Of a stretch of 64,000 bases of DNA, positions 3,030 to 64,000 are shown piece after piece. The DNA is from Alphaproteobacteria bacterium. GTDB taxonomy: Bacteria > Pseudomonadota > Alphaproteobacteria > MPNO01. The position numbers and the translations under genes are program-made. The stretch spans positions 2,016,001 through 2,080,000 of the forward strand of contig CBDFLJ010000001.1 of assembly GCA_965248835.1 (NCBI GenBank), read 5' to 3'. The notes beneath the pieces were generated by a model, which made no database searches, was not told the DNA's origin, and saw only the letters and a program-made list of their open reading frames with translations. The stretch's first letter is position 1; each line of letters begins with the position of its first letter.

Positions 3030-5348
3030 ATGGCCAAGTTCGGTATCGGTCAGGGCGTTCCACGGTGGGAGGACCCGCGGCTCCTGCGCGGCGGCGGCCG
3101 TTACAGCGACGACGTCAACATCGCCGGTCAGGCCTACGGCGCGGTCCTGCGCTCGCCCCATGCCCATGCGCGGATCATCGGCATCGATACCGCTGCGGCT
3201 TCCGCCGCGCCGGGCGTGCTCGCGGTCTATACCCACGCCGATGTCGCCGACCTCGGCGGCATCCCGTGCGTGGTGGCGCGCAGCAAGGCCGACGGAACGC
3301 CGATGTTCACCCCACCCAACCTGGCGCTGCGCAAGAACCGGGTCCGCATGGTGGGCGATCCCGTCGCCTTCGTCGTCGCCGAGACCGCCGCCCGGGCGCG
3401 CGATGCGGCCGAGTTGATCACCGTCGACTACGCGCCGTTGGGATCGGTCACCCGAACCGCCGACGCGCAGGCCGCGGGCACACAGGCGGTCTGGGACGAA
3501 TGCCCGGACAATGTCTGCTTCGTCTTCGATGAGGGCGACAAGGCGGCCGCCGAGGCTGCGTTCGCCGCCGCCCACCACGTCACCAGACTCGATTTCATCG
3601 TCACCCGCGTCGCCGTCGCCCCGATGGAGCCGCGCGCATGCATCGGCGAATACGACATTTTCACCGGCCGCTACACGCTGCATACCGGAGTGCAGGGGCC
3701 GCATTGGATGCGCCAGGCGACCGCGGGGCCGATCCTCAAGGTCTCGGAAGGCGACCTCAGGGTGATCAGCCGCGACATGGGCGGCGCGTTCGGGATGCGC
3801 TCCGGCCCCTATTGCGAGTACGTCCTGTGCCTGTTCGCGGCCAAGGCGCTCGGCCGGCCGGTCAAATGGACCGGCGAGCGCTCCGAAGGGTTCATGAGCG
3901 ACGACCAGGCGCGCGACAACGTCTCCCGGGCGGAGCTCGCGCTCGACGCGGACGGCCGGTTCCTCGCCCTGCGGGTCAGCACGACGGCCAATCTCGGCGC
4001 CTATCTCTCGCTCCTGGGGCCGCATTCCTCGACCAACAATCTCGGCACGCTGGCCGGGCCGTACGAGACGCCGGCGATCTACACCCACATCACCGGCGTG
4101 TTCACCAACACGCAATCCACCGGGCCCTACCGCGGCGCGGGGCGGCCCGAGGCGGCCTATGCGATCGAGCGGGTGATCGACACCGCGGCCGACGAGATGG
4201 GGATCGACGCCGCGGAGCTGCGCCGGCGCAACTACATCCCGGACGGTTCCTTCCCGTACAAGACCGGGCTGGTGTTCACTTACGATTCCGGCGCGTTCGA
4301 AGACAACATGGATGCCGCCTTGAAGATGGTCGACTACGCCGGCTTCGCCGGCCGCCGCGCGGCCGCCGAGGCGCGGGGCCGGCTCGCCGGGATCGGCATC
4401 GCCAACGTCATCGAGCAGTCCGCCGGCGGCTTTCCGGAATGGGCGCAGATCCGCTTCGACAGCTCGGGCTCGCTCACGCTGACCATGGGCACCCACAACC
4501 ACGGCCAGGGGCACGAGACCATCTTCCGCCAGATTCTGTCGGACAAGCTCGGGCTGGAATTCGAGCAGATCCGCATCTCCCAGGGCGACAGCGACGAGGT
4601 GATGGCGGGTAACGGGACCTTCGGCTCGCGTTCGTCGGGCGTCGGCGGGGCCGCGATCATGATGGCCGCCGACAAGGTGATCGACAAATGCCGCAAGGTC
4701 GCCGCCCACAAGCTCGAAGCGGCGGAGGAAGACGTCGAGTTCGTCGACGGCAATTTCACCGTCGCCGGCACCGACCGCAGCCTCGGGATGGTCGAGGCGG
4801 CCAAGCTCGCCAACGCCTTCATGGAGGTGCCGCCCGGGATGGAGCCCGGGCTCAACGAATGGGCCGCCTGGACCCCGCCGGCACCCACCTTCCCCAACGG
4901 CTGCCATGTCTGCGAGGTCGAGATCGACCCCGACACCGGGGACTGCGAGATCCTGCGCTATGCCGCGGTCGATGACGTGGGCACGGTGATCAACCCTCTG
5001 CTGATGGAAGGCCAGCTCCACGGCGGGATCGTCCAGGGTCTCGGCCAGATCATGATGGAGAACGTCGTCTGGGAGCCCGGATCGGGCCAGCTCCTGGCAG
5101 GCTCGTTCATGGACTACACCATGCCCAGGGCCGATAACCTGCCGAGCTTCGAGATGGGCATCAACGAGGTGCCGACGCCGACCAACCCGATGGGTATCAA
5201 GGGCGCCGGCGAGGCCGGCTGCGTCGGCGCGATGCCGGCGCTGATGAATGCGATCATGGATGCGCTGAGCCCGCTCGGCGTGCGCAGCTTCGACATGCCG
5301 GCCACGCCCGAACGGCTGTGGCGGGCGATCAACCGGGCGGCAGCCTGA
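3030..5348 (+). CDS. Xanthine dehydrogenase family molybdopterin-binding subunit (CoxL form II-like)
   Basis: IGQ.VPR.ED.RLL.G.G.Y.DD, RSPHAHARI, GGAFG, PYRGAGRPEA, HGQGHET, QLHGGIVQGLG, KGAGEAG. Confidence 0.92.
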   Translation: MAKFGIGQGVPRWEDPRLLRGGGRYSDDVNIAGQAYGAVLRSPHAHARIIGIDTAAASAAPGVLAVYTHADVADLGGIPCVVARSKADGTPMFTPPNLALRKNRVRMVGDPVAFVVAETAARARDAAELITVDYAPLGSVTRTADAQAAGTQAVWDECPDNVCFVFDEGDKAAAEAAFAAAHHVTRLDFIVTRVAVAPMEPRACIGEYDIFTGRYTLHTGVQGPHWMRQATAGPILKVSEGDLRVISRDMGGAFGMRSGPYCEYVLCLFAAKALGRPVKWTGERSEGFMSDDQARDNVSRAELALDADGRFLALRVSTTANLGAYLSLLGPHSSTNNLGTLAGPYETPAIYTHITGVFTNTQSTGPYRGAGRPEAAYAIERVIDTAADEMGIDAAELRRRNYIPDGSFPYKTGLVFTYDSGAFEDNMDAALKMVDYAGFAGRRAAAEARGRLAGIGIANVIEQSAGGFPEWAQIRFDSSGSLTLTMGTHNHGQGHETIFRQILSDKLGLEFEQIRISQGDSDEVMAGNGTFGSRSSGVGGAAIMMAADKVIDKCRKVAAHKLEAAEEDVEFVDGNFTVAGTDRSLGMVEAAKLANAFMEVPPGMEPGLNEWAAWTPPAPTFPNGCHVCEVEIDPDTGDCEILRYAAVDDVGTVINPLLMEGQLHGGIVQGLGQIMMENVVWEPGSGQLLAGSFMDYTMPRADNLPSFEMGINEVPTPTNPMGIKGAGEAGCVGAMPALMNAIMDALSPLGVRSFDMPATPERLWRAINRAAA

Positions 5349-5366
5349 CCGGCACGGAGGACGAGG

Positions 5367-5996
5367 ATGGAGTTCCAGAACCAGTTCAATGTCGACGTCC
5401 CGCCGGAGGAGGCGTGGACGATCCTGACCGACATCGAACGCATCGCACCGTGCATGCCAGGCGCCGCGGTCACCGAGGTGATCGACGAGAACACCTTCAA
5501 GGGCACGGTCTCGGTCCGGCTCGGCCCGGTCGCGCTGACCTTCGCCGGCGAGGCCAGCTTCGAGGACCGCGACGACGCCGGCCACTCCGCCCGGGTGAAG
5601 GCCCAGGGGCGCGATGCCAAGGGACGCGGCGGCGCCAACGCCGACGTCCGGTTCCGCCTAGTGCCGGCCGAAGGTTCAGCGACCACGGTGGAGATCCAGA
5701 CCGACCTGCAGCTCTCGGGCTCGGTTGCCCAGTACGGCCGCGGCGTCGGCATGATCAAGGATGTCGCCACCCAGCTCATCAACCAGTTCGCCGCCGCCCT
5801 TCACCAGCAGATCACCGCCGACCAGCAGGCGGCCGCCGAAGCCGAGGGCGCGGAGGAAGCTGCCGCGCCCGCCGCCGAGCCCCCTGCCCCGCCGGCCGCC
5901 AAGCCGATCTCGGGTGTCGGGCTCGGCCTGACGGTGACGTGGAACGCCTTCGTCCGCGGCCTCAAGCGGCTGTTGGGAATCCGCTCCGAGGGCTGA
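5367..5996 (+). CDS. CoxG / SRPBCC family protein
   Basis: W..LTDIERIAPCMPGA and LSGSVAQYGRG motifs, an Ala/Pro linker and a C-terminal anchor; follows the Mo-subunit gene. Confidence 0.88.
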   Translation: MEFQNQFNVDVPPEEAWTILTDIERIAPCMPGAAVTEVIDENTFKGTVSVRLGPVALTFAGEASFEDRDDAGHSARVKAQGRDAKGRGGANADVRFRLVPAEGSATTVEIQTDLQLSGSVAQYGRGVGMIKDVATQLINQFAAALHQQITADQQAAAEAEGAEEAAAPAAEPPAPPAAKPISGVGLGLTVTWNAFVRGLKRLLGIRSEG

Positions 5997-6053
5997 AAAT
6001 ATCGGCGCCGGAGCGTGCGGCCATACGCCGCCGCGATGGCGTGACGGAGACCC

Positions 6054-7205
6054 TCACCAGAGCTGGCTGGTCGCCAGTTTCGCGCCCTCGGCCATCGCCG
6101 CGAACTTGGCCCAGATCACCGTCGGGTGGACCTCGGTGTGATAGCACGCCTGGGACGAGAAGCCGCAATCGCCGCCGGCCAGGAGATTCTCGCGGCCGAC
6201 CAGCCTGGCGAAGCGCACGATACGCTCGGCGATCAGCTCGGGATGCTCGACGATGTTGCTGGCGTGGGTGATCACGCCGGGAATGAGCGCCTTGCCGTCG
6301 GCCAGCTTGACGTCCTCGAAGACATGGTACTCGTGCTCGTGCCGCGGGTTCGCCGCCTCGAAGGAATAGCTGCCGGCATCGATGTCGAGCATGTATTGGC
6401 AGACCTGGCGGAGCGGCGCCTCGTGGATCCGCGGCCCTTCATTGATGCCGTAGCAGGTGTGATAGCGGATCCTGTCCTGGTCGATGCCGCGGACCGCGTG
6501 GTTGAGCGCCTCGACGTAAAGCCGGCATTTGCGGTCCTTGCCGGCGTCATCGAGCGCCGGGTCGACCAGGATGTCGCACAGAAAAGGGTCGTCGATCTGA
6601 AGCAGGAACCCGGCCTCGACGATTGCGAGATACTCGGTGCGCAGGGCCTCGGCGACCGCCTCGGCATACGCCTCCTCGGTGGCGTAGTGGTCGTTGTAGC
6701 CCACGCCGGCCGGCGAGATCGCGGGCACGAACGCATCCTCGCACGCCAGCCCGTCGAGCGCGGTCTTGAGATTGTCGAGGTCGCGGCCGAGGGCCTCCCC
6801 GCCCTTGTAGCGCACCGGGCCGACGCAATAGATCGGCGCCATCGGCACGACCGCCCCGCCCATCATCACGCGGGCGAAATACTCCTCGTAATATTCGGGG
6901 AAGGCGGCGATCTCGGCCGCGAAGAGGTTGTATTTCTCGTCCTTCCTGACCTCGAAGCCGTCCATCCGTTCTTCGATATAGGCGAAGAAGCCGGGCTTGG
7001 ACATCTCGCCGTCGGCGACCACGTCGATGCCGAGATCGACCTGGCGCTTGACGATCTCGGCCACGCCGTCGCGGATCTTCTCGCGATAGGCGGCCTCGTC
7101 ATAGCCACCGCCGGTGTATTTGGCCTTCATGATATCGAGGACCTCGACGGTCCGGGGCAGGCTGCCCACGTGGGTGGTCAGAATGCGGTCGGAGTGTCCT
7201 TGCAT
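6054..7205 (-). CDS. Cobalamin-independent methionine synthase II family (MetE C-terminal-like) protein
   Basis: ILTTHVGSLPR, DGEMSK, and Zn-ligand motifs HTCYG, FEAANPRHEHE and DCGF; GGAGG RBS before ATG 7205. Confidence 0.88.
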   Translation of the reverse strand: MQGHSDRILTTHVGSLPRTVEVLDIMKAKYTGGGYDEAAYREKIRDGVAEIVKRQVDLGIDVVADGEMSKPGFFAYIEERMDGFEVRKDEKYNLFAAEIAAFPEYYEEYFARVMMGGAVVPMAPIYCVGPVRYKGGEALGRDLDNLKTALDGLACEDAFVPAISPAGVGYNDHYATEEAYAEAVAEALRTEYLAIVEAGFLLQIDDPFLCDILVDPALDDAGKDRKCRLYVEALNHAVRGIDQDRIRYHTCYGINEGPRIHEAPLRQVCQYMLDIDAGSYSFEAANPRHEHEYHVFEDVKLADGKALIPGVITHASNIVEHPELIAERIVRFARLVGRENLLAGGDCGFSSQACYHTEVHPTVIWAKFAAMAEGAKLATSQLW

Positions 7206-20854: not shown

Positions 20855-21007
20855 GACAGGATCTCCGAATCGGGTTTTCTACGCCACTCTATACAAGCCG
20901 GCCGATCTGCGCTTGACTTCATGGACGGCTGGGAGAAGGACGGGGCCCGACAAGGCGCCTGCCCTCCTCACCGCGCAGAGCCGATCCGCTCAAACCGGGA
21001 GAGACCG

Positions 21008-22129
21008 ATGGCCAAGCCCCGTATCGTCGATGCCGACGGCCATGTCTTCGAGGACACGGCCGCGATGGGCAAGCGCATGCCCAGGGTGTACCGCGACTGG
21101 AAATACGCCCACGGGATCTTCGCCAACCAGCCATGGTTCCCGCCGCTCGGCCATCTGCACACCCCGACCGGCACCAACCCGCCCGGTGCCTTCGGCGACG
21201 GCAAGCCGGTGGGCGTCGAGGCGTGGATGGCCTTCATCGAGGCCACCGGTATCGACAGCGCGGTGCTGTTCCCGACCAACGGGCTGACCATGGGCCACAT
21301 CGCCAACGCCGACTACGCGATCGCGGTCGCCAGGGCCTACAATGACTGGTTGGCCGAGACCTATGTCGACCGCTCCGAGGTGTTCAAGGGCATGGGGCTG
21401 ATCGCCCAGCAGGAGCCCGAAGCGGCGGTCGAGGAGCTCAGGCGCTGCATCGTCGAGCTCAAGATGACCGGCGTCATGCTCGCCGGCACCGGGATCAAGG
21501 GCAATCTCGGCTCCAAGGAGTACTGGCCGATCTATGCCGAGGCCGAGCGGCTGGGCTGCCCGCTGGCGGTCCATGCCGGCAACCATATCAATCTGGGCAT
21601 GGACGCGATGAATGTCTTCGCGCCGGCGCATGCGATCGGCCATCCGCTGGCGATGATGATCGGCCTGGGCGGGCTGGTGTTCAACGGCGTATTCGACAAG
21701 TTCCCGGCCCTCAGGTTCGGCTTCCTCGAGGGCGGCGTGGCGTGGCTGCTGTTCTGCATCGAGCGTTTCGATTCGAGCCACGAGAACTTCAAGCCGCTCG
21801 ACTGGCGCGGTGACCTGCTCAAGCTCGCGAACGGCCAGTCGGTCGGGGACTACGTGCTGGGGCTGATCGACGGGGGCCGGATCTTCGTCGGCGCGGAGGG
21901 CGACGAGTTCATGCTGGCCGCGGCGATCAAGGCCGTCGGCAACGCGCCCTTCATGTTCTCCTCGGACTTCCCCCACGAGGTCAACATCGAGAAGTGCCTG
22001 CACCATCTCGAGGAAATCTTCGAGAACGCGGAGCTGAGCGATGACGACCGCGACGCGATCCTGCACGCCAACGCCGAGCGGTTCTACGCCACAAGGCCGG
22101 CCGCCGCGGGCCAGGCCGCGGCGGAGTAG
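21008..22129 (+). CDS. Amidohydrolase_2 family metal-dependent hydrolase/decarboxylase
   Basis: IVDADGH, ARAYNDWL, LAVH, FDKFPALR..FLEGG and FSSDFPHE. Confidence 0.88.
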   Translation: MAKPRIVDADGHVFEDTAAMGKRMPRVYRDWKYAHGIFANQPWFPPLGHLHTPTGTNPPGAFGDGKPVGVEAWMAFIEATGIDSAVLFPTNGLTMGHIANADYAIAVARAYNDWLAETYVDRSEVFKGMGLIAQQEPEAAVEELRRCIVELKMTGVMLAGTGIKGNLGSKEYWPIYAEAERLGCPLAVHAGNHINLGMDAMNVFAPAHAIGHPLAMMIGLGGLVFNGVFDKFPALRFGFLEGGVAWLLFCIERFDSSHENFKPLDWRGDLLKLANGQSVGDYVLGLIDGGRIFVGAEGDEFMLAAAIKAVGNAPFMFSSDFPHEVNIEKCLHHLEEIFENAELSDDDRDAILHANAERFYATRPAAAGQAAAE

Positions 22130-22169
22130 GCGACTGGGCGAGCAGGGCGGGGCGACGGAACGGGCATGG

Positions 22170-22227
22170 ATCGTCGATAGCAGCAGCCATGTCTTCGAAG
22201 ATACCCGAGTGATGGCCAGGCATGCCG
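22170..22227 (+). pseudogene. Degenerate 5' relic of a paralogous amidohydrolase
   Basis: IVDSSSHVFEDTRVMARH versus IVDADGHVFEDTAAMGKR at 21023; the DNA similarity is also visible (ATCGTCGAT...CCATGTCTTCGA). Confidence 0.6.
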
Positions 22228-22524
22228 CAAGCCTACGGCGGTCGGGTCTATCCGGGCAGGTGGCTGATGCCGATGCAGGAGCTGGCGGCGGCGTGGTCTC
22301 TTGGACCAGTTGGACGCCAAACGTCGAGGTTCGATCGCCACACGGGCCGATTTTGGAATCGTGAAACGGCAAAGCCGTTCCGACCGTGATTTCCTCGTTC
22401 GGACGATTGAATATACCCTGAATGCCCCATTCCGATTTCGCACGATCCCAGATGTATAACAAAATTACAGGGTTATAAAACAATCTTGATATAATTTGAA
22501 AATTTTGGTAGAAAGCTTCTTACG

Positions 22525-23703
22525 ATGGACCCTGTATGCAACCCATTTGCGCCAGGCGCGGGCTCTCAACCTCCTGAGTTGGCAGGCCGTGACGAGATAA
22601 TCAGCGATGCTGAGATTGCCTTAAAGCGAGTCTTGGAGGGAAGGCATCACACCTCTCAAATCCTGTTGGGGCTTCGCGGAACCGGTAAGACAGTCCTACT
22701 AAATAGAATCGAGCAAATGGCTGAATCATTGGGCCATGAAACCTCATTTATCGAAGCGCCGGAGGACAAATCACTCGCCGATTTGCTCTACCCTAGGATC
22801 GCTCGATCTCTGCGTAGATTATCGACGATCGAGAACGCCAGAACCGCTGTACATTCCGCGATGCGGGCCTTGCGTGGATTTGCCAGCGCGTTTCGGATCT
22901 CGGTCGGCGATGTCGCGATTTCCGTGGATCCGGAACCAGGTGCCGCGGACAGCGGAAACTTGGAGTATGACTTGAGCGAGCTATTCGATCGCATCGGTCT
23001 GGCCGCCAAATCGGCAAACAAAGCATGGACGCTGTTGATCGATGAGGTCCAATACCTAGCGGAGGAAGATCTCTCTGCGCTGATTGTCTCAATACATCGG
23101 GTCAATCAACGTCAATTACCAATTATATTTTTTGGTGCGGGCTTGCCGCAGACTGCTGCTCTATCAGGCAATGCTAAATCTTATGCGGAGAGACTATTCA
23201 GCTATCCTCCCGTCGGCCCTCTAGATAATTCCGCTGCTATTTCTGCCATTAGACAGCCGATTATAAGCCAAGGTGAGAATATAACGGATGAGGCTCTCGA
23301 ATTGATTTTTGAAAAAACTGAAAACTATCCATATTTTCTCCAAGAATGGGGATATCAAGCATGGAACATTGCCGATGCGTCGCCGATCGATGCGAGAGAC
23401 ATTCACGGCGCGTCTTCGGCAGCACTTCGCCGGCTCGATGAAGGTTTCTTCCGTGTTCGCTTTGATCGACTTACGCCGAAGGAACGCGAGTACGTGATCG
23501 CAATGGCGAATCTCGGAAGCGGGCCCTATAGATCGTCGGATGTCGCTGATGCCCTCGGCGAACGCCTCCAATCTCTGGGCCCGCGTCGGGCGAAGATCAT
23601 CAACAAAGGCATGATATACAGCCCAGCCTATGGCGACGTTACATTCACCGTTCCAATGTTCGACGACTACCTAAGGCGCACCACAGATGCTTCCGCCGCG
23701 TAG
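22525..23703 (+). CDS. Stand-alone P-loop ATPase (AAA_16/archaeal-ATPase-like) with probable C-terminal winged helix; AT-richer insertion
   Basis: NPF.PGAG..P..LAGR, Walker A GLRGTGKT, Walker B LLIDE.Q, YPYFLQ and FTVPMF. Codon usage is visibly unlike the flanks. Confidence 0.85.
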   Translation: MDPVCNPFAPGAGSQPPELAGRDEIISDAEIALKRVLEGRHHTSQILLGLRGTGKTVLLNRIEQMAESLGHETSFIEAPEDKSLADLLYPRIARSLRRLSTIENARTAVHSAMRALRGFASAFRISVGDVAISVDPEPGAADSGNLEYDLSELFDRIGLAAKSANKAWTLLIDEVQYLAEEDLSALIVSIHRVNQRQLPIIFFGAGLPQTAALSGNAKSYAERLFSYPPVGPLDNSAAISAIRQPIISQGENITDEALELIFEKTENYPYFLQEWGYQAWNIADASPIDARDIHGASSAALRRLDEGFFRVRFDRLTPKEREYVIAMANLGSGPYRSSDVADALGERLQSLGPRRAKIINKGMIYSPAYGDVTFTVPMFDDYLRRTTDASAA

Positions 23704-23826
23704 AGCGAAACCGACTCAGACGGCGTGGGCGGGCCTCGAGCCCAGGCAACGAGAGCTGACGCAGCACGTCCCCGTCACGGAAGCGAAACCACTAATGATC
23801 TGCAGCCACGGCGACACTCGCGCGCG

Positions 23827-24633
23827 TTACAACCCCAGCACGTCGGCCATCGTGTAGACCCCGGGGGCGCGGCCGGGCGTCCACAGCGCGGCATGGACTG
23901 CGCCGCGCGAGAAGATGCGCCGCGAGGACGCCTTGTGGGTGAGTTCCAGCCGCTCGCCCTCGATCGCGAAGACCACCGAATGATCACCCACCACGTCGCC
24001 GCCTCGCAGCACCGCGAAGCCGATGTCGCCCTGATTGCGCGCGCCGGTATGGCCGTGGCGCGTCATCTGGGAAACCGTGTCGAGATCGACCCCGCGCCCG
24101 GCGGCCGCCGCCCGGCCGAGCCCGAGCGCGGTGCCCGATGGCGCATCGACCTTGTGCTTGTGGTGCATTTCGACGATCTCGATGTCGAAACGGTCATCGA
24201 GCAGGGAAGCGACCTGTCTGGTCAGCGCGAACAGGATATTGACGGCAAGGCTCATGTTGGGAGCAACGACGATCGGCGCGGTCTTGCCCGCCTCGGCGAT
24301 CGCGGCCTCGTGCTCGGCGCTGAAGCCGGTGGTGCCGATGACGTGCGCGGTCCGCGCTTGCGCGGCCAGCGCGGCATGGCGCGCTGTCGCCTCGGGCAGG
24401 GCGAACTCGATGACCACCGCGGCGCGCTCGAAGACCGCCGCCGGGTCGGCGCCGATGCTCACCCCTACCGTGCCCAGCCCCGCGACCTCGCCCACGTCGC
24501 GGCCGATCGCCGGATGGCCCGGCCCCTCGGCGGCCGCGGCGATCACGCATCCGTCGGTCTCGAAAATCTCCCGGGCGACGGTCGTTCCCATCCGCCCGCC
24601 GGCCCCGATCACCCCGATCGCCAAATCCGCCAT
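23827..24633 (-). CDS. dapB: 4-hydroxy-tetrahydrodipicolinate reductase
   Basis: GAGGRMG, VIGTTG and EMHHKHKVDAPSGTA. Confidence 0.97.
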   Translation of the reverse strand: MADLAIGVIGAGGRMGTTVAREIFETDGCVIAAAAEGPGHPAIGRDVGEVAGLGTVGVSIGADPAAVFERAAVVIEFALPEATARHAALAAQARTAHVIGTTGFSAEHEAAIAEAGKTAPIVVAPNMSLAVNILFALTRQVASLLDDRFDIEIVEMHHKHKVDAPSGTALGLGRAAAAGRGVDLDTVSQMTRHGHTGARNQGDIGFAVLRGGDVVGDHSVVFAIEGERLELTHKASSRRIFSRGAVHAALWTPGRAPGVYTMADVLGL

Positions 24634-24686
24634 CGCCTGCCTCTCTCGCCCCGAAGTCTGTTCCAATCCGATCGGGTCAGCCCGGC

Positions 24687-25835
24687 TCAGTCGGTGAGGT
24701 CTTCCCAGAGCTCCTTCACCTTAGTGAAGAAGCCTTCGGACTCCGGGCTGGTCGAGCGGGCCTCGCCGGTGCCGCCCGGGGCCTCGAACTCGCGCAGCAG
24801 CGCCTGCTGGCGCTTGTTCAGGTTGACCGGCGTCTCGACCTGGATCTCGATGACCATGTCACCACGGCCGCGGCCGTGCAGCCCGGTCATGCCCTTGCCG
24901 CGCAGCCGGAACTGGCGCGCCGACTGGGTGCCGGCCGGAATCGTCACCTTGGCCAGCGTGCCGTCGATCGTCGGCACCTCGACCGTGCCGCCGAGCGCGG
25001 CGGTGGTCATCGGGATCGGCACACGGCAGAACAGCGTCATTGCCTCGCGCTCGAACAGCGCGTGCGAGGCGATGCTGACGAAGATGTAGAGATCGCCGGT
25101 CGAGGCCCCGTTGAGCCCGGCTTCGCCTTCGCCGGCAAGCCGGATTCGGGTGCCGTCCTCCACGCCCCGCGGGATGGTGACCGCCAGCGTCTTTTCGCGC
25201 CGCACGCGGCCTGAGCCGGTGCACGCCTTGCACGCATCCTCGATCACCTGGCCGACGCCGCCGCAGGTCGGGCAGGTCCTCTCGATGGTGAAGAAGCCCT
25301 GCTGGGCGCGGACCTTGCCGCGGCCCTGGCACATGCCGCAATTGGCCGGCCGGCTGCCCGGCGCGGCGCCGGAGCCGTGGCAGGTGTCGCAGCTCACCGA
25401 GGCCGGGATCCTGATCTTGGTCTCGTGGCCGCGATAGGCCTGCTCGAGCGAGATTTCCATGTTGTAGCGCAGGTCCGCGCCGCGGGCGCCGCCGGTGCCG
25501 CCGCCGCGCCGACCGCCCATGAAATCGCCGAACATCTCGTCGAAGATGTCGGCGAAGCCCGAGCCGAAATCAAACCCGCCGCCCTGGCCGCCCGCGCCCG
25601 GTCCGCCGTTCTCGAACGCCGCATGGCCGAAGCGGTCATAGGCCGCGCGCTTCTGGTCGTCCTTCAGGACGTCATAGGCCTCGCTGATTTCCTTGAACTT
25701 CTGCTCTGCCCCCGCATCACCCTGGTTGCGGTCGGGGTGATACTTCATGGCCAGCTTGCGGTAAGCCTTCTTGACCGTCTCGGCATCGTCGCCCTTGGCG
25801 ACGCCCAACATGTCGTAATAGTCCTGCTTGGCCAT
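24687..25835 (-). CDS. dnaJ: Chaperone DnaJ
   Basis: J-domain HPD, G/F region and four CxxCxGxG repeats. Confidence 0.98.
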
Positions 25836-54840: not shown

Positions 54841-56913
54841 TCAGCGCTGCGGTGCGTCGTCGGCCGCCTCGGGCTCGGGCTCGGACGCGGCTTCCGGCTC
54901 GGGCTGTGCTTCGGGCTCGGCCTCGGAGGCCGCTTCGGCTTCGGCCTCGGCCTCGGAGGCGGCTTCGGCCTCGGGCTCGGAGGTGGCTTCGGCTTCGGGC
55001 TCGGGCTCGAGCTCGGCTTCGGGCTCAGGCTCGGAGGCGGCTTCGGCCTCGGAGGCGGCTTCGGCCTCGGAGGCGGTTTCGGGCTCAGGCTGGGCTTCGG
55101 GCTCGGAGGCGGCTTCGGCCTCGGGCTCGGCTTCGGGCTCGGAGACGGCTTCCGCATCCGAGCCGGCGGCCTGCACCGCACCGCGTTCGGCAGCCGCCCT
55201 CTCCTGGTTGGCCCGGTTGATGGCCGCGCCGAGGATGTCGCCCAGGCTGGCGCCGGAATCCGAGGAGCCATACTCGGCCATCGCCTTCTTTTCCTCGGCC
55301 ATTTCCTGGGCCTTGATCGACAGGGTCAGCCTGCGGTCGCGCCGGTCGATGTTGGTGACCCGGGCATCAATCCGGTCGCCGGGTGCGAACCGGTCGGGGC
55401 GCTGGTCGGCCCGGTCGCGCGACAGTTCCGCCCGGCGGATGAAGCCCGGCAGCCCGCCTGCGGCGGTCACCTCGAGCCCGCCGTCGGTGACCTGGGTCAC
55501 CGTGCAGGTGATGACGTCGCCGCGTTTGACCTCGCTCCTGGCCGAGTCGAAGGGGTCGTCTTCGAGCTGCTTGATGCCGAGCGAGATCCGCTCCTTCTCC
55601 GCATCGACATCGAGCACCTTGGCCTTGACGATCTCGCCCTTCTTGAAGTCCGCGACCGCCTCTTCGCCCGGGCGCCGCCAGTCGATGTCCGACAGGTGCA
55701 CCATGCCGTCGATTTCGCCTTCGAGCCCGACGAACAGGCCGAACTCGGTGATGTTCTTGATCTCGCCCTCGATGGTCGAGCCGACCGGGAAGCGCTCGAG
55801 GAACTGATCCCACGGGTTGTCGCGGCACTGCTTGAGGCCGAGGCTGATTCGGCGCTTGTTGGGATCGACCTCCAGCACCATGACCTCGACCTCCTGGCTG
55901 GTCGAGACGATCTTGCCGGGGTGAACGTTCTTCTTGGTCCAGCTCATCTCCGAGATGTGGACCAGGCCCTCCACCCCGGGCTCGAGCTCGACGAAGGCGC
56001 CGTAGTCGGTGATATTGCTGACCCGGCCGGTATACTTCGCTCTGACCGGATATTTGTGCTCGACCCCGTCCCACGGATCGGCTTCGAGCTGTTTCATGCC
56101 GAGCGAGATGCGCTGGGTCTCCGCGTTGTAGCGGATCACCTGGACCCTGACGGTCTGGCCGATGCCGAGCGCTTCGGTTGGATGGTTGATGCGCCGCCAG
56201 GCGATGTCGGTGACGTGCAGCAGGCCGTCGACGCCGCCGAGGTCGACGAAGGCGCCGTAGTCGGTGATGTTCTTGACGATCCCCTCGAGGATCTGGCGCT
56301 CCTTGAGGTTGGCGAGCAGCTCGTTGCGGGCCTCTGCGCGCGACTCTTCGAGGACCGCGCGGCGCGAGACCACGATGTTGCCGCGGCGGCGGTCCATCTT
56401 CAGGATCTGGAAGGGCTGCGGCGAGCCCATCAGCGGCGAGACGTCGCGCATCGGACGGACGTCGACCTGGCTGCCCGGCAGGAACGCGACCGCGCCGGAC
56501 AGATCGACCGTGAAGCCGCCCTTGACCCGGCCGAAGATGGTCCCCGAGACCCGCTCGGTGGCCTTGAATGCCTGTTCGAGCAAGGTCCAGGCCTCCTCGC
56601 GCCGCGCCCGCTCGCGCGAAAGCACCGCCTCGCCGTTGCGGTCCTCCATGCGCTCGAGATAGACGTCCACGCAATCGCCGACCTTGATCTCGGCGTCCAT
56701 CCCGGGGGTGCTGAATTCCTTCAGCGCCACGCGGCCCTCGGACTTCAGCCCGACATCGATCAGCGCGGAATCGTTCTCGATACTGATCACGGTTCCCTTC
56801 ACCACCGATCCCTCGGTCAGCTCGCCCTCGGCGAAGCTTTCCTCCAGCAGGTGCGCGAAATTCTCTATGGCCGCGTCTGCCACCGGGCCTTCAGTGGCTA
56901 ATTCGTTCGACAT
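54841..56913 (-). CDS. rpsA: 30S ribosomal protein S1 with long acidic C-terminal tail
   Basis: Six S1 repeats (DVGLKSEG, YGAFVDLGG.DGLLH and others) and SSDSGASLGDIL; cmk-rpsA-sppA-ihfB synteny. Confidence 0.98.
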   Translation of the reverse strand: MSNELATEGPVADAAIENFAHLLEESFAEGELTEGSVVKGTVISIENDSALIDVGLKSEGRVALKEFSTPGMDAEIKVGDCVDVYLERMEDRNGEAVLSRERARREEAWTLLEQAFKATERVSGTIFGRVKGGFTVDLSGAVAFLPGSQVDVRPMRDVSPLMGSPQPFQILKMDRRRGNIVVSRRAVLEESRAEARNELLANLKERQILEGIVKNITDYGAFVDLGGVDGLLHVTDIAWRRINHPTEALGIGQTVRVQVIRYNAETQRISLGMKQLEADPWDGVEHKYPVRAKYTGRVSNITDYGAFVELEPGVEGLVHISEMSWTKKNVHPGKIVSTSQEVEVMVLEVDPNKRRISLGLKQCRDNPWDQFLERFPVGSTIEGEIKNITEFGLFVGLEGEIDGMVHLSDIDWRRPGEEAVADFKKGEIVKAKVLDVDAEKERISLGIKQLEDDPFDSARSEVKRGDVITCTVTQVTDGGLEVTAAGGLPGFIRRAELSRDRADQRPDRFAPGDRIDARVTNIDRRDRRLTLSIKAQEMAEEKKAMAEYGSSDSGASLGDILGAAINRANQERAAAERGAVQAAGSDAEAVSEPEAEPEAEAASEPEAQPEPETASEAEAASEAEAASEPEPEAELEPEPEAEATSEPEAEAASEAEAEAEAASEAEPEAQPEPEAASEPEPEAADDAPQR
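54862..55155 (-). repeat. Degenerate coding tandem repeats (EPEAEAAS / EAEAAS) in the rpsA tail
   Basis: The plus strand shows repeated GGCTTCGGCCTCGGAGGC and GGCTCGGGCTC units. Confidence 0.9.
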
Positions 56914-59180: not shown

Positions 59181-59558
59181 TTGGCGAAACCCGAATGGGG
59201 ACTGAAGCGCGCCTGCCACGGCTGCGGCACGCGGTTCTATGACCTCAGACGCAACCCGATCGTCTGCCCGAGCTGCGGCGCGACCTTCGATCCGCTGGCG
59301 ATGCTGCGGCCGCGCCGCAGCCGCGCGGCCGCAGCCGTCCAGGAGGCCAAGCCTCCGGTCGTGGTGGCCGAGAGCGTCGCGGACGTGGTCGAAGCCGATG
59401 TCGACGAGGAAGTCGACGACGAGGTGAGCCTGGAAGCGGTCGCGGCCGATGACGACGAGGACGAGGACGTGATCGAAGACGTCTCCGAACTCGGAGAGGA
59501 TGGCGACGACGTGTCCGAGGTCATCGAAGGCGGCAGCGTCAGCGCCAAGGATCCTTAG
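59181..59558 (+). CDS. TIGR02300 / FYDLN-acid family protein
   Basis: AKPEWG.KR.C..CG.RFYDL...P..CP.C followed by an acidic tail; sits between aroA and tRNA-Ala. Confidence 0.92.
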   Translation: MAKPEWGLKRACHGCGTRFYDLRRNPIVCPSCGATFDPLAMLRPRRSRAAAAVQEAKPPVVVAESVADVVEADVDEEVDDEVSLEAVAADDDEDEDVIEDVSELGEDGDDVSEVIEGGSVSAKDP

Positions 59559-59609
59559 GAACGGAGGACTCGCCGGCAGCCGGCGTAGACAGGACGAAAA
59601 ACCGGATTC

Positions 59610-59685
<76 letters not shown>

Positions 59686-59754
59686 AATTTTTCAACGGGT
59701 TACGCCGGGAGTGAGGCGTCCGGCGGCCCGTCTTAGACAGTCCGGTCAGGCGCC

Positions 59755-60428
59755 TTAGACACTACCTGCTCTCGTTTCGAGCTTCACGATCGCCGCCCGG
59801 GCGAGCCTTTCCTGGTCGGCCTTGCGGGTGTAGCGGACCACCATCGCGACCGTCCGGTGGCCGAGAATTGCCATGATCTTGCGGTCGGTGCATCCCCGGC
59901 CTCGGCCAGCCTCGCGGCCGCCGTGTGACGCAGGCCGTGGAACTGTAGCGCCCCCAATCCTAGCCGCTTCTTTTCCCGGTAGAAGATCGAATGGAACCCC
60001 GAGGCCGTGTACGGCCGGCCGTCCTGGCGGTGGACGATAAACATGTGCTCGCGGGGGATCTGATCGAGTACGTCGGCAAGGTGCTGGTGGATCGGGATCG
60101 CCAGCCGGTCGCCGGTCTTGGCCTGGACGACCCAGATCAGTCCCTCGTTGATATGACGCCATTGCATCGCGAGCACATCGCCGCGGCGCTGGCCGGTGTG
60201 CAGGGCGAGATCAAGCGCCCACACCATGCGAGGATTGGCACCCTTGCGGAACCGCTCGATCGCGACATCCGGCCAGGGTTCGTAGCTCTTGGTTGCTCGA
60301 AGTTTCTTGACCCGCACCGCCGGATTGTCCGCACGCAGTCCGCGATCGACCGCGAAGCCGAGCAGGATCGACATGATAGAGAGCGTCATATCGGCGGTGC
60401 GCGGAGTGTCCGCCAAGTTGTCCCGCAT
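59755..60428 (-). pseudogene. Tyrosine recombinase/integrase, 5'-truncated and frameshifted
   Basis: TGQRRGD, QAKTG and FHGLRHT lie in one frame, while LGHRT..MV.RY lies in another. The shift is at the G4 run 59894-59897, and the gene abuts the tRNA 3' end. Confidence 0.88.
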
Positions 60429-60430
60429 TT

Positions 60431-60540
60431 CGTACGGTAACCGTCTTGCCCTCGTAAAACTCCGACACCGGATCCGCGAGCGCCGGAACCGTCCACAACA
60501 ACGACGCCGACACCAGTCCCAGAACGATATGTCGATTCAC
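60431..60540 (-). pseudogene. 5' relic of a Bug/TctC-like periplasmic binding protein
   Basis: GGAGG RBS, GTG start, signal peptide and ADPVSEFYEGKTVT; cut off at the integrase junction. Confidence 0.55.
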
Positions 60541-60805
60541 CGCTCCATCCTCCCGTTTTATGTTCAGACCGCCGGTTTTCCCCTCGTCACGCATCTTGCG
60601 CGCTCGCATGCGCATGGACAGCAAGCATGTGCGTTGCAGGGTTTTCCGTATCGGCGGCTTTCCCGGTCGCGGGGGCGTTGGTCCGCTGCGGTGACGCGGA
60701 CGAGCAACTTTCGCCGGTTTTCGGAACCATAGCTGACGGCCGGACCGGGACCGCCGCGGACGGGGCGGCACGTTGGTCTTGCCCAAGATCGCCGCCGGTG
60801 CAGTG

Positions 60806-60961
60806 CACCGGACACAGCAACAGGTCGTATTCGGCAAAGAAATCACGCCATTTCCGCCGCATCCGCTGGCGTTGCTCGTTGAAACCCAGCCAGTCGCGGT
60901 GAGACAGCGTCACGCCGCGCAGCATGCGCGCCCATTTGTCGTCATCGTCGTCGTCGCGCGC
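60806..60961 (-). pseudogene. Internal fragment of an amidase-signature enzyme
   Basis: SHRDWL..NE.R.R.RRKW.DFFAEYDLLLCPV matches the FF..YD.LL.P region of amidases. Confidence 0.6.
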
Positions 60962-61117
60962 CGCACGCCCAGCCTTCCTTGCACTCGAAGACATCCGCTG
61001 ATAATTATACGAAACTGCCTTGTAGGGAAGGATGTGCCGACGCGCGCCAGGATCGGCTACGATCTCTATACGTAAGCCCGTTGCGGTCTAGCACAACAGC
61101 GCGAGGAGGCATTTGGA

Positions 61118-62254
61118 ATGCAAAGAGTCAGAGTGGCCATCGCCGGTATTGGCAACTGCGCGAGTTCTCTTATCCAGGGTCTGGAATACTACAAGAGACA
61201 GAGCGCGGAAGCGTTTGTCGGTCTCATGCATGCCCGGATCGGCGATTGGGGTCCGAGCGACATCGAGATTGTGGCCGCTTTTGATATTGATCGGCGCAAG
61301 GTGGGCAAGCGGGTGGAGGACGCGATTTTCGCCAAACCGAACTGCGCCAAGATTTTTCAGCGCATTCTACCAGTTTCCAACATCGTGGTGCGGATGGGGC
61401 CGGTTCTCGACGGTGTAGCGTCTCACATGGCCGATTATCCCGATGACGAGGCATTCCGCCCCTCTGACGAGGACCCGGTCGATGTCGTCCAAACCCTCAA
61501 GGATGCCAAGACTGAAGTTCTGGTCTGCTATATGCCGGTAGGCTCTGAAGCTGCGGTTCGGGGTTATGCCCGGGCATGCTTGGAGGCCGGGGTCGCCATG
61601 ATCAACTGCGTTCCGGTATTCATCGCTTCCGATCCCGAGTGGGCTGAGAAATTCCGTCGTGCGGCCCTGCCTATCGTCGGCGACGACATCAAAAGCCAGG
61701 TCGGCGCCACTATCGTGCACAGATCCCTGACCCGACTATTCGGGGATAGGGGGGTGTCGCTTGATCGCACCTATCAGTTGAACACGGGTGGCAACACGGA
61801 TTTCCTCAATATGAAGGCGTTAGACCGCCTGGAGTCCAAAAAGGTTTCCAAGACGGAGTCCGTGCAGTCGCAATTGGACGATCGGCTGGTTTCTCGGGAC
61901 ATTCATATTGGACCGTCCGACTACGTGCCGTGGCAGGGCGACAACAAGGTTGCCTTCATCCGGATGGAGGGCCGCGGTTTCGGGGACGTGCCGTTGGAAC
62001 TCGAACTCAGGTTGTCGGTCCAGGATTCCCCCAACAGCGCCGGCGTGGTCATCGATGCCATCCGTTGCGCCAAACTGGGGTTGGAGCGCGGCATCGGCGG
62101 ACCATTAGAGGCGCCTTCCGCCTACTACATGAAAAGCCCTCCGAAACAGATGCGTGATTCGGTGGCCTATGATTTAGCTGAGGCATTTATTCAAGGCTGT
62201 GATGCCGACGGTACTTCCGATACGGAGGCTGTTCGAACAACCGCCGGTGAATAG
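61118..62254 (+). CDS. ino1: myo-inositol-1-phosphate (inositol-3-phosphate) synthase
   Basis: G.GNCASSL.QG, AAFDID..KVG, YMPVGSE.A, GDDIKSQVGAT, QLNTGGNTDFLNM, SKK.SKT.SV, DNK and DSPNSAG. Confidence 0.96.
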   Translation: MQRVRVAIAGIGNCASSLIQGLEYYKRQSAEAFVGLMHARIGDWGPSDIEIVAAFDIDRRKVGKRVEDAIFAKPNCAKIFQRILPVSNIVVRMGPVLDGVASHMADYPDDEAFRPSDEDPVDVVQTLKDAKTEVLVCYMPVGSEAAVRGYARACLEAGVAMINCVPVFIASDPEWAEKFRRAALPIVGDDIKSQVGATIVHRSLTRLFGDRGVSLDRTYQLNTGGNTDFLNMKALDRLESKKVSKTESVQSQLDDRLVSRDIHIGPSDYVPWQGDNKVAFIRMEGRGFGDVPLELELRLSVQDSPNSAGVVIDAIRCAKLGLERGIGGPLEAPSAYYMKSPPKQMRDSVAYDLAEAFIQGCDADGTSDTEAVRTTAGE

Positions 62255-63122
62255 CTCCGACAATCAGACTGCCGATAATGATCCTGGCAGTGTGAACGCG
62301 TCCCGGACCGCAGCCTTGCCCTGGGTGGAGCGGTTACTCATGCTCCACCACCAAGTGCGGAACGCGGTAGCGACTGCCGACCGCGCTGGAACCGGATCCA
62401 GAAACGCGAAGGGCGACGAAATCAAACGCTTCGACCTGATTGCCAATGACGCGGCTTTGACTGTCCTCCGGGAACTTCAGTTGCCGATCGTCGTCGATTC
62501 CGAGGAGAGCGAACCTCTGCAAATCGGTTTCGGCACGCCGCGACACCGTCTCATCCTCGATCCAGTGGATGGTTCCGACAACTGGGCGCGGGGGTTGCCG
62601 CTGTCAGCCTTGTCCTGCGCCGTGCTGCCGGCTGACGCTCCCCTCCATCCCGATTGGGTCGAAGCGGCTCTGGTTGGGCCGCTCGAGCCGGGCACGACCC
62701 TGATCGCGCTCAAGGGCTCTGGTGCTTGGCGCGGGAAGGAATCCCTCCATATATCCGACGTCCGCAACGTCGCCGAGGCCACGATCTCGGTCGAACTCAA
62801 TCATCATTCTCCGTCGCCGGGCATTGCCCGTCTGACGGCCGCTGCCAGAAGCGTGCGGTGTTACGGTTGCGCGTCACGCGCCATCTCCCTGGTCGCCGAG
62901 GGCGTGACCGACGCCCATGTGGACGCGCGTGGCCGTTTGACCGCAGAAAGCTACCTCGCCGCCGCACGGTTGGTAATCGAGGCGGGGGGCTGGGTTGTCG
63001 GCCTTGATGGCGCGCCCCTGGCGGCGCCGGAAAGTTTGACCGACCGCGTCAGCCTGATCGCGGCGGCGAGCCGGGACCTGTGCGATGAGATCGTGGATGT
63101 TTTGGGCGATGAACAACCCTGA
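62247..63122 (+). CDS. Inositol monophosphatase / FBPase-IMPase family phosphatase
   Basis: FD..AN, DSEES, ILDPVDGSDN, R.YG and EAGG; the inferred GTG start overlaps the ino1 end. Confidence 0.85.
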   Translation: MNSSDNQTADNDPGSVNASRTAALPWVERLLMLHHQVRNAVATADRAGTGSRNAKGDEIKRFDLIANDAALTVLRELQLPIVVDSEESEPLQIGFGTPRHRLILDPVDGSDNWARGLPLSALSCAVLPADAPLHPDWVEAALVGPLEPGTTLIALKGSGAWRGKESLHISDVRNVAEATISVELNHHSPSPGIARLTAAARSVRCYGCASRAISLVAEGVTDAHVDARGRLTAESYLAAARLVIEAGGWVVGLDGAPLAAPESLTDRVSLIAAASRDLCDEIVDVLGDEQP

Positions 63123-64000
63123 CTTGACCACGGCGGCACCGGAGATGGTGCTGATCCTTGCCGCCGGATTGGGGTCGCGGCTTCGACCGCATACCAATAG
63201 ACCAAAACCGCTGACCAGAGTGCTCGGATTGACCCTCGCGGAACGGACCGTGTGGACATTGCTGGACGCCGGCATCAGACGTTTCCTTGTCACCCTCGGT
63301 CATGAATCCGAAGCGGTCAGGACCCATTTTTCCGATATCGCCCAGCGTCGCGGCGTCACGATTGACTTTATCGAAGCCGAAGGCTGGGGGCGCGGCAATG
63401 GTGCCAGCGCCCTGGCAGCCAAGGGTCGCACCGGCGAGGCGCCCTTCTTCCTAGTTATGGTCGATCATCTTTTCGATCCCCGTATCGCGCGGGCACTGGC
63501 CGGTGACCCTCCCGCACCAGGAGAAATGTGCCTCGCCGTGGACCGCGACAAGGATGGCATCTTCGATCTCGGCGATGTCACTCGGGTCAAGATCGACGAC
63601 GGACGCATTCAAGAGATCGAGAAGACGCTCGATGATTGGGATGCCGGCGACACCGGAGTTATGCTTTGTACGTCCGGCCTGTTCGAAGGTCTTGAGCGCG
63701 CGGCAGCGCGGAATAAGCATGGACTCTCCGACGGGCTCAGGGAAATGGCGCGTGAAGGCCGGGCGAGCACCGTCGATGTGACGGGAATGCCGTGGCTCGA
63801 CGTTGATACACCCAAAGCCTTGCGTGAGGCGGAGAGAAGGCTCATGCGCGACCAAGCCTGGAAAATCCAGGACGGACCGGTGGCGCGCCATTTCAACCGA
63901 CGGGTTTCCCGCTGGCTCAGCCGCTATCTGGTTGGCACAGCCGTGACGCCCAACCAAATTTCCCTAGCCTCCTGGCTCCTGTCGTGTATCGCGGCGGGAT
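63109..64000 (+). CDS. Bifunctional NTP-transferase + CDP-alcohol phosphotransferase (IPCT/DIPPS-like); 3' end outside window
   Basis: Manual translation (absent from the ORF track): LILAAGLGSRL...PKPL, GNGAS, MVDH, DTG, WLDVDTP, then K..DGPVARHFNRRVSR...TPNQIS starting the membrane domain. Confidence 0.9.
   Translation, partial: MNNPDLTTAAPEMVLILAAGLGSRLRPHTNRPKPLTRVLGLTLAERTVWTLLDAGIRRFLVTLGHESEAVRTHFSDIAQRRGVTIDFIEAEGWGRGNGASALAAKGRTGEAPFFLVMVDHLFDPRIARALAGDPPAPGEMCLAVDRDKDGIFDLGDVTRVKIDDGRIQEIEKTLDDWDAGDTGVMLCTSGLFEGLERAAARNKHGLSDGLREMAREGRASTVDVTGMPWLDVDTPKALREAERRLMRDQAWKIQDGPVARHFNRRVSRWLSRYLVGTAVTPNQISLASWLLSCIAAG

Follow-up and report, generated by a model that had tools for sequence, protein, structure and literature searches.

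The genes for di-myo-inositol phosphate (DIP) synthesis in Thermotoga maritima reportedly stand together in one operon, which codes for an inositol-phosphate synthase, an inositol monophosphatase (IMPase) and a fused CTP:inositol-1-phosphate cytidylyltransferase/DIP-phosphate synthase (IPCT/DIPPS) and is said to have been described by Rodionov et al. in 2007. The present work concerns a three-gene cassette at the end of a window, by which we mean the whole stretch of 64,000 nucleotides analysed (positions 2,016,001 to 2,080,000 of contig CBDFLJ010000001.1, from an alphaproteobacterium). The cassette consists of ino1 (gene 1), a gene for an IMPase-like phosphatase (gene 2) and a gene for a predicted fused cytidylyltransferase/CDP-alcohol phosphotransferase (gene 3), of which P0001, a database protein of 460 amino acids (aa), is a near-identical full-length relative.

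The IPCT/DIPPS of Archaeoglobus fulgidus (AF0263; structure 4mnd, IPCT domain 2xme) has in common with P0001 the fusion, the catalytic signature and a six-helix membrane domain; the identity is about 28%, the host here is an alphaproteobacterium and the relatives of gene 3 come mostly from marine and sediment genome bins. The T. maritima IPCT (4jd0) ranks high among the matches to the N-terminal domain of P0001. The closest solved membrane domain is that of AF2299 (4o6m, 4o6n, 4q7c; 146.5 bits, residues 258-451), and AF2299 and P0001 both carry SYTxDK, RDxR and E..RRI. The N-terminal domain of AF2299 matches that of P0001 marginally (first stretch -0.9 bits) and is described just as cytidylyltransferase-like in the accessible part of PMC4634129, whereas the nucleoside triphosphate (NTP)-transferase domain of gene 3 is complete. 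In Rhodothermus marinus, ino1 and IPCT lead to CDP-inositol and then to a CDP-alcohol phosphotransferase, as we propose for the cassette; unlike the cassette, that pathway has a lipid product and no phosphatase is described for it (PMC4587543, accessible part).

We consider DIP the most likely product of the cassette, if with modest confidence. Ino1 would convert glucose-6-phosphate to L-myo-inositol-1-phosphate (I1P), and the N-terminal cytidylyltransferase domain of gene 3 would form CDP-inositol from I1P and CTP. The six-helix phosphotransferase domain of gene 3 would then place phosphoinositol on a second I1P, giving DIP-phosphate (DIPP), from which the IMPase-family enzyme encoded by gene 2 would strip the remaining phosphate to leave DIP. 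What each domain acts on, what is finally made and whether it protects against salt, pressure or temperature stress are matters of inference here. Comparative evidence leans to a soluble phosphodiester, namely DIP. This route is favoured because the gene neighbourhood, the acceptor-site arginines, the six-helix architecture, a contrasting subfamily and the motifs of gene 2 point the same way when taken together. The sequence-only reading had held that the window alone does not settle which product is made, and we agree.

The same reading had recognized ino1, an IMPase-like gene and a fused IPCT/CDP-alcohol phosphotransferase gene with overlapping ends, and this is borne out by the open reading frames (ORFs) and by Pfam and NCBIfam matches (table 1). 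The overlaps are 56 nt (ino1/gene 2) and 38 nt (gene 2/gene 3). Ino1 matches PF01658 with 118 bits (cut-off 27) and spans the whole of TIGR03450 (positions 1-355 of 355) with 471.7 bits, under the mycothiol-specific cut-off of 638; it is 85% identical to the copy at locus L001 and 60% identical to a Sphingomonas plasmid copy, both discussed below. Gene 2, which has an uncertain start codon (GTG 62199 or ATG 62202), matches PF00459 with 46 bits (cut-off 27). Its best NCBIfam match is the bifunctional FBPase/IMPase model NF009321 (124 bits, under the cut-off of 264) and its closest solved relative is the inositol monophosphatase 1dk4 of Methanocaldococcus jannaschii (61 bits), with whose residues the metal-binding motifs GDE, SEE, DPVDGS and VDxR line up. 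The part of gene 3 inside the window comprises 305 codons of about 464 and is open at the window end (ORF 63085-63999). It matches the NTP-transferase families PF12804 and PF00483 over their cut-offs, and the IPCT/DIPPS model NF041135 with 161.6 bits over model positions 4-267 of 419 (cut-off 580); its N-terminal domain carries LILAAGLGSRL..PKPL, which fits the NTP-transferase signature GxG(S/T)R..K. The gene stops in its first membrane helix at the window end, and the phosphotransferase catalytic motif does not lie within the window. With no stop codon ahead of the window end, it did not appear in the ORF track. The gene set is beyond chance, since three family matches stand in operon-like order and that order recurs in other genomes. 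A scan of 59500-64000 for sigma-70-like promoters gave 0 sites (1.2 expected). The only terminator-like site found, on the minus strand within ino1, is taken as chance (3.9 expected), and an Rfam scan found a tRNA alone, with no riboswitch ahead of ino1.

The missing end of gene 3 can be read from P0001, which is identical to it at 300 of 301 shared residues. P0001 carries PF01066 and the full D1xxD2G1xxAR..G2xxxD3xxxD4 motif, in the form DGCDGEIAR-x8-G-x3-D-x3-D. A check had been set beforehand for absence or frameshift of the signature DG..AR...G...D...D; in the near-identical P0001 it is intact. Against NF041135, an equivalog model built for Thermococcales with a curated cut-off of 580 bits, P0001 scores 269.2 bits and covers positions 2-416 of 419. 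Gene 3 is thus predicted, from its sequence, to work like this equivalog, although it is not filed under it. The AlphaFold model of P0001 (42-sequence alignment; pLDDT 92.9, pTM 0.88) shows an α/β domain in the cytosol, one juxtamembrane helix and six helices in the membrane (helices at 261-278, 285-304, 308-334, 340-369, 372-402, 413-425 and 429-459) and ends at residue 460, with no extra C-terminal helices beyond the six. Its top structural match is the A. fulgidus IPCT/DIPPS 4mnd (E 2.3e-29, TM-score 0.78/0.87, 443 columns), to which the sequence match also spans both domains (E 3.8e-49); AF2299 is second. In the structural ranking for the N-terminal domain, the two solved IPCTs 2xme (A. 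fulgidus) and 4jd0 (T. maritima) stand above all other nucleotidyltransferases, RmlA, GalU and MurU included.

Residues R28, K37 and D123 of the cytidylyltransferase domain are invariant in the 42 sequences and probably correspond, by a putative mapping, to R16, K26 and D112, which are conserved in the active site of the T. maritima IPCT. R413 and R416 of the membrane domain are likewise invariant; they align with R152 and R155 of mycobacterial phosphatidylinositol-phosphate (PIP) synthase, in which S132 is the counterpart of the serine in SYT. Both R155 and S132 are said to bind inositol phosphate in the accessible part of PMC4634129, where the six-helix form is associated with soluble acceptors and lipid-acceptor enzymes are given three to four additional helices.

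At least 569 confirmed relatives of the fused gene were found in species-representative genomes (one genome per species), and the neighbours of the fused gene were clustered across the 80 best loci among them. Of the 64 loci with at least 1300 nt of upstream sequence, 39 have an ino1 gene on the same strand no further than 1500 nt upstream. The IMPase-like gene stands directly upstream of the fused gene in nine of the 80 loci, including the clade of the window gene and its sister clade. In 29 of 72 loci, ranging from L003 to L072 (for example L006:11271-11894 and L026:11314-11874), the partner is a different one: a DUF4202 gene coding for an HD-domain protein of about 200 aa, which overlaps the fused gene at its 3' end. 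IMPase and HD genes occur together in none of the 58 loci with both flanks. Of the 19 long forms that were scanned, four are fused C-terminally to DUF4202 (P0127, P0151, P0156 and P0524) and seven are triple fusions of IPCT, CDP-alcohol phosphotransferase and HAD (P0171, P0207, P0208, P0211, P0220, P0245 and P0264); a further HAD triple fusion is found in Candidatus Scalindua sediminis (L071:2786-4846). All the HAD triple fusions retain the LDR and RxxR motifs of the window class. A 796-aa ORF at L069 that resembled an ino1 fusion contains a stop codon and was rejected as a fusion.

With a CDP-inositol donor and, as recurrent partners, three unrelated types of predicted phosphatase, the acceptor should therefore be phosphorylated, as only such an acceptor leaves a removable phosphate. 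The sole substrate-supplying gene in the cassette is ino1, which provides I1P. The DUF4202 HD protein is thus a candidate DIPP phosphatase; no mention of DUF4202 was found in the literature searched, and the family has no solved relative by sequence. We tentatively put forward a wider possibility: that DIP or a close inositol phosphodiester may be a compatible solute common among microbes of cold seas, the deep sea and sediments and not a hallmark of hot life, spread between phyla by a small mobile ino1-phosphatase-IPCT/DIPPS cassette whose DIPP phosphatase step, long without an assigned enzyme, may have been filled independently by at least three folds (IMPase-like, HD DUF4202 and HAD).

Several observations weigh against DIP. 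P0001 misses the cut-off of the IPCT/DIPPS equivalog (269 versus 580 bits), and the last 155 or so codons of this organism's own gene 3 fall beyond the window. No phosphatase neighbour is present in 27 of the 58 loci with both flanks, and the partner links, mapped on the tree described below, need at least five (IMPase) and at least 13 (HD) changes, so they are patchy and not single events. The rows of that tree include no characterised DIPPS or BEPIS sequence. No report of DIP measured in a mesophile or other non-thermophile was found in the accessible parts of the literature searched. Caulobacter CpgD, whose top structural match is the T. maritima IPCT, uses phosphoglycerate (PMC12275187), so an IPCT-like fold does not fix the substrate. 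The membrane domain scores 146.5 bits against AF2299 and only 75 bits against the proven DIPP synthase AF0263. Accounts of the AF2299 reaction differ: it is treated as a CDP-glycerol enzyme in the accessible part of PMC4634129, and PMC8633023 gives it a probable part in phosphatidylinositol-phosphate synthesis.

These scores bear on whether the cassette makes some other soluble inositol phosphodiester, either glycerophosphoinositol, with glycerol-3-phosphate as the acceptor, or an AF2299-type product. Glycerophosphoinositol is accumulated by A. fulgidus and Aquifex. We regard this alternative as unlikely, even though the membrane domain is much nearer to AF2299 than to the A. fulgidus DIPPS, AF2299 was crystallised with CDP-glycerol (PMC4634129, PMC8633023, accessible parts) and the phosphatase argument demands just a phosphorylated acceptor. 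No linked glycerol-phosphate or CDP-glycerol gene is present in the window or at L001, L002 or L007, and gene 3 retains R28, K37 and D123 of an active cytidylyltransferase, whereas the AF2299 N-terminal domain is only cytidylyltransferase-like.

The remaining points against DIP concern lipids. In Rhodothermus, ino1, IPCT and a CDP-alcohol transferase make an ether inositol lipid and not DIP (PMC4587543, accessible part), and clusters of an NTP-transferase, a CDP-alcohol transferase and a HAD protein in Bacteroides and Prevotella are proposed to serve inositol lipids (PMC9246714); because of the Bacteroides case, a hydrolase partner is no proof of a solute. The cassette might accordingly make an inositol phospholipid by a BEPIS-like CDP-inositol route of the Rhodothermus kind, with diacyl- or dialkyl-glycerol or ceramide as the acceptor and the IMPase-like enzyme balancing the I1P and inositol pools. 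The fused enzyme is an integral membrane protein in the model, and a split cluster of this lipid type occurs on an alphaproteobacterial plasmid of Sphingomonas parapaucimobilis. We nevertheless think a lipid product rather unlikely. The model has six helices and none extra at the C-terminus, which argues for a soluble acceptor on the reasoning of PMC4634129 (accessible part); the RxxR pair, which binds the acceptor phosphate in PIP synthases, is invariant; the stand-alone Sphingomonas transferase is remote, has an insert of about 60 residues and lacks RxxR; and a lipid acceptor would leave no phosphate for the three recurrent phosphatase partners.

A contrasting subfamily bears on the same alternative. 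Class membership was assigned by the motifs LDR and R[DEP]xR, an earlier rule, SYT..K[YF], being too strict (20 of 129 representatives passed). A second subfamily of fused proteins of about 480 aa, which includes P0152, P0165, P0166, P0197, P0209 and P0248, comprises 24 of the 129 representatives and is without the RxxR/LDR-class motifs; in 20 of the 24 the fourth aspartate is followed by N, D or E, and the subfamily has an insert after helix 4. It is in this motif-lacking subfamily, and not in the window class, that fusion to the lipid-related LPG_synthase_TM domain is seen (P0248). P0240 is also fused to LPG_synthase_TM, and a motif pattern search did not find the core motif in it. The second subfamily may be lipid-making (BEPIS-like), and may be a better candidate for lipid work than the window class.

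The cassette is foreign to its alphaproteobacterial host and was laterally acquired, as the sequence-only reading had proposed. The bases are its composition, a tRNA gene with an integrase remnant, and a copy of 80% identity lying between transposase and integrase genes at L001. The features around it are listed in table 1.

Table 1. Features of the cassette and of the region leading up to it, in window coordinates.
Feature	Position	Strand	Evidence or remark
FYDLN_acid (TIGR02300) zinc-ribbon protein, acidic tail	59181-59558		last native-looking gene ahead of tRNA-Ala
tRNA-Ala (GGC), likely integration site	59610-59685	+	ARAGORN; Rfam RF00005 67.4 bits
tyrosine integrase remnant, N-terminally truncated, frameshifted (by eye)	59755-60428	-	PF00589
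amidase gene fragment (pseudogene remnant)	60587-60994	-	NF004816 partial match
Shine-Dalgarno-like GAGGAGG	61103-61109	+	8 nt ahead of ino1 ATG, from sequence
ino1 (gene 1), myo-inositol-1-phosphate (inositol-3-phosphate) synthase	61118-62254	+	378 aa, ATG; PF01658, TIGR03450
gene 2, IMPase/FBPase-family phosphatase, putative DIPP phosphatase	62199-63122	+	307 aa; PF00459, NF009321
gene 3, fused CTP:inositol-1-phosphate cytidylyltransferase/CDP-alcohol phosphotransferase (predicted)	63085-64000	+	PF12804, PF00483, NF041135

The GC content drops from 0.672 (window 1-59600) to 0.617 (59700-64000), and GC at third codon positions is 0.68-0.72 in the cassette genes, against 0.79-0.89 in aroA, rpsA, cmk and the FYDLN gene. 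The tRNA gene lies 1.4 kb from the cassette. Within the integrase remnant, the ORF 59784-60428 matches PF00589 with 60.7 bits over profile positions 26-144 of 172 only; an ORF in another frame, 59755-60162, ends ...ILGHRTVAMVVRYTRKA, which by eye resembles a recombinase C-terminal box. Four further ORFs between the tRNA gene and ino1, including this second integrase frame, gave no Pfam match. The amidase fragment covers only positions 341-407 of the 493 of NF004816 (60.1 bits, cut-off 503), and its PF01425 score of 19.5 bits is under the cut-off of 27. A search of 59500-64000 for a repeat of the tRNA end gave only short pairs at chance level (best 14 nt at 86%). Among the marks of a tRNA-linked island, the tRNA gene and the shifted composition are thus present, but the integrase is only a remnant and no convincing direct repeat of the end of the tRNA gene lies within 59500-64000; the island's far border lies outside the window. 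The acquired element has been in place long enough for decay of its own genes (integrase and amidase).

This decay raises the question of whether the cassette is itself a decaying passenger, non-functional in its host. Such a reading, for which the adjoining integrase and amidase fragments and the position of the 3' end of gene 3 beyond the window may be cited, appears highly improbable to us: three frames are open across 2.9 kb behind a strong ribosome-binding site, the catalytic motifs are retained and a full-length copy with 300 of 301 identical residues exists.

The clearest case of cassette mobility is L001, on a contig binned as Thermodesulfobacteriota. It carries the three-gene cassette at 80% nucleotide identity over 2878 nt, from 10 nt inside ino1, flanked by an IS1595-family transposase gene and an rve integrase-core gene (L001:5192-6091 and L001:11929-12480). 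The GC content is 0.636 in the cassette and 0.516 in the remainder of the contig. This copy reflects either a recent transfer or a mis-binned contig. At L075 (Thalassospiraceae, 79% identity) the downstream genes are unrelated (sulfite reductase and others), so the mobile unit consists of the three genes only. The neighbourhoods also bear on a further alternative. CDP-activated alcohols decorate bacterial surface polymers, and on that sole ground phospho-inositol could be placed on a surface polymer or glycan instead of a small molecule, an option that the sequence-only reading had named. We judge this very unlikely, since no linked glycosyltransferase, flippase or polysaccharide gene is present in the window, at L001 or at L075, and the conserved partners are ino1 and phosphatases only.

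The host is alphaproteobacterial, as had been stated from the sequence: for its AroA, the relatives that bear a name are from Defluviicoccus, Stellaceae and Alphaproteobacteria and are 65-69% identical. The closest AroA relatives are 88, 84 and 81% identical and the next at most 73%, so that three exceed 80%, as against more than 100 for gene 3.

The best 120 matches listed for gene 3 are all 77-100% identical, and those named among them are labelled Hyphomicrobiaceae, Rhizobiales, Alphaproteobacteria, Proteobacteria and, in one case, Pirellulaceae. An exhaustive profile-free search for the fused-gene family gave 12,965 representatives of clusters with a threshold of E<=0.001, of which 510 also pass E<=1e-30. 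Of 51 cluster members listed, six carried a name, none of them that of a cultured organism. Among the genome matches listed, no locus exceeds 79% identity to gene 3. The best 80 loci span more than 25 phyla of bacteria and archaea, among them Nitrosopumilaceae, Thermoplasmata, Helarchaeota, Atribacterota and two genomes of SAR11; almost all of the loci come from metagenome bins, with names that suggest marine, seep, vent, trench or sediment sources. A protein search of a plasmid collection gave 82 records, none spanning at least 80% of the query and the best at 35.7% identity, so that none of the plasmids in this collection carries the cassette. When a Hydrothermarchaeota protein was used as the query, no Archaeoglobus, Thermococcus, Thermotoga or Rhodothermus protein was among the 120 matches listed. 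The sequence-only reading had called the pathway hyperthermophile-type, as a mark of rarity. This did not hold, given the 77-100% identity of the best 120 matches listed, the 510 clusters, the at least 569 genome hits and the prediction of DIP outside thermophiles already in print; the term is a historical label and not a description of the habitat of gene 3.

A FastTree tree was built from 78 rows, comprising five database proteins and those 73 proteins from the loci that reach 400 aa (seven shorter ones were omitted). It departs from organismal phylogeny, with 43 changes of phylum label against a minimum of 26. The clade of the window gene 3 (starred) contains L001, L002 (Bryobacterales) and L007 (Methyloligella, Hyphomicrobiaceae). 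The cassette is a widespread trait, patchy and horizontal in its distribution and not vertical in the lineage: of the earlier proviso that it might prove a widespread vertical trait, the first half stands and the second does not. The two SAR11 copies (L054 and L067) form a long-branched pair of their own; RxxR is missing from these two and present in the rest of the 76 full-length locus proteins; at L054, ino1 lies downstream of the fused gene and not upstream.

Elsewhere in the window, ribosomal protein S1 (rpsA) bears at its C-terminus (54841-55250, minus strand) a tail of acidic Pro/Glu/Ala/Ser repeats about 110 residues long (SEPEAEPEAEAA...), with a weak match to the procyclin repeat family. 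A second GC dip at 21000-25100 (0.564 at 22-24 kb) contains an AAA-ATPase ORF (22525-23703) flanked by long ORFs without a Pfam match (20990-22483, minus strand, and 23725-25089, plus strand), and may be another acquired segment. On the Agrobacterium vitis plasmid pAvCG412 (L082, 1495-6699), a distant CDP-alcohol phosphatidyltransferase gene stands behind genes for a phosphoenolpyruvate mutase (aepX), an aminotransferase, a member of the phosphocholine-cytidylyltransferase family and an oxidoreductase. Clusters of this type occur on conjugative Agrobacterium and Rhizobium plasmids, and this one has the look of a cluster for a phosphonate head-group or a phosphonolipid.

Should the cassette indeed make DIP, gene transfer would have given an ordinary-looking alphaproteobacterium a solute that is seen as marking life above about 60 °C, and the case would add to the genome hints from hadal archaea and Atribacteria that DIP also helps cells to withstand pressure, salt or cold. 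At about 3.4 kb the cassette is small, and it is self-contained, and therefore directly testable by expression. The three-fold phosphatase partnership nominates candidates for the DIPP phosphatase and, should the tentative reading of a cold-water solute with three phosphatase folds be true, would give DUF4202 its first predicted function. If the product were a lipid instead, the rare CDP-inositol lipid route would extend to a new and very large enzyme clade.

Neither this cassette nor a tRNA-linked alphaproteobacterial copy of it was found described in the accessible parts of the literature searched. For Alphaproteobacteria, the abstract of Jorge et al. from 2015 reportedly mentions BEPIS homologues. 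The S. parapaucimobilis plasmid NZ_CP155750.1 (L081) carries at 4050-6717 a split cluster of a gene for a 283-aa CDP-alcohol phosphatidyltransferase, ino1 and an NTP-transferase/IPCT gene, without a phosphatase gene. This is the inositol-lipid arrangement reported for Rhodothermus, in a sphingolipid-making genus, and likely the alphaproteobacterial counterpart of the Rhodothermus pathway. The Sphingomonas transferase is only remotely similar to the window-type membrane domain (25.6% identity over 125 residues, E 5.7e-4), and Alphaproteobacteria thus hold two different CDP-inositol systems.

The closest precedents for the proposed function come from non-thermophiles. Hadal Thaumarchaeota are described as carrying a fused IPCT/DIPPS and an additional copy of IMPase on a small island, which is called horizontally acquired and for which a pressure adaptation is proposed (PMC7265257, PMC10773090, accessible parts), Atribacteria of cold hydrate sediments are reported to have MIPS and IPCT-DIPPS (bioRxiv 10.1101/536078, accessible part), and genome annotation of 'DIP synthesis' lists SAR116 and gives SAR11 as '+/-' (PMC12262181, PMC6018831, accessible parts). 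The Thaumarchaeota and Atribacteria thus have a fused IPCT/DIPPS outside thermophiles with a proposed pressure or osmotic role, as in our reading of the cassette. The Nitrosopumilaceae copy (L056) and the Atribacterota copy (L038) fall in other clades of the tree than the window gene 3, and the IMPase at L056 is just 27% identical to gene 2. The enzyme encoded by gene 3 is of a known kind, and DIP genes outside thermophiles are already in print.

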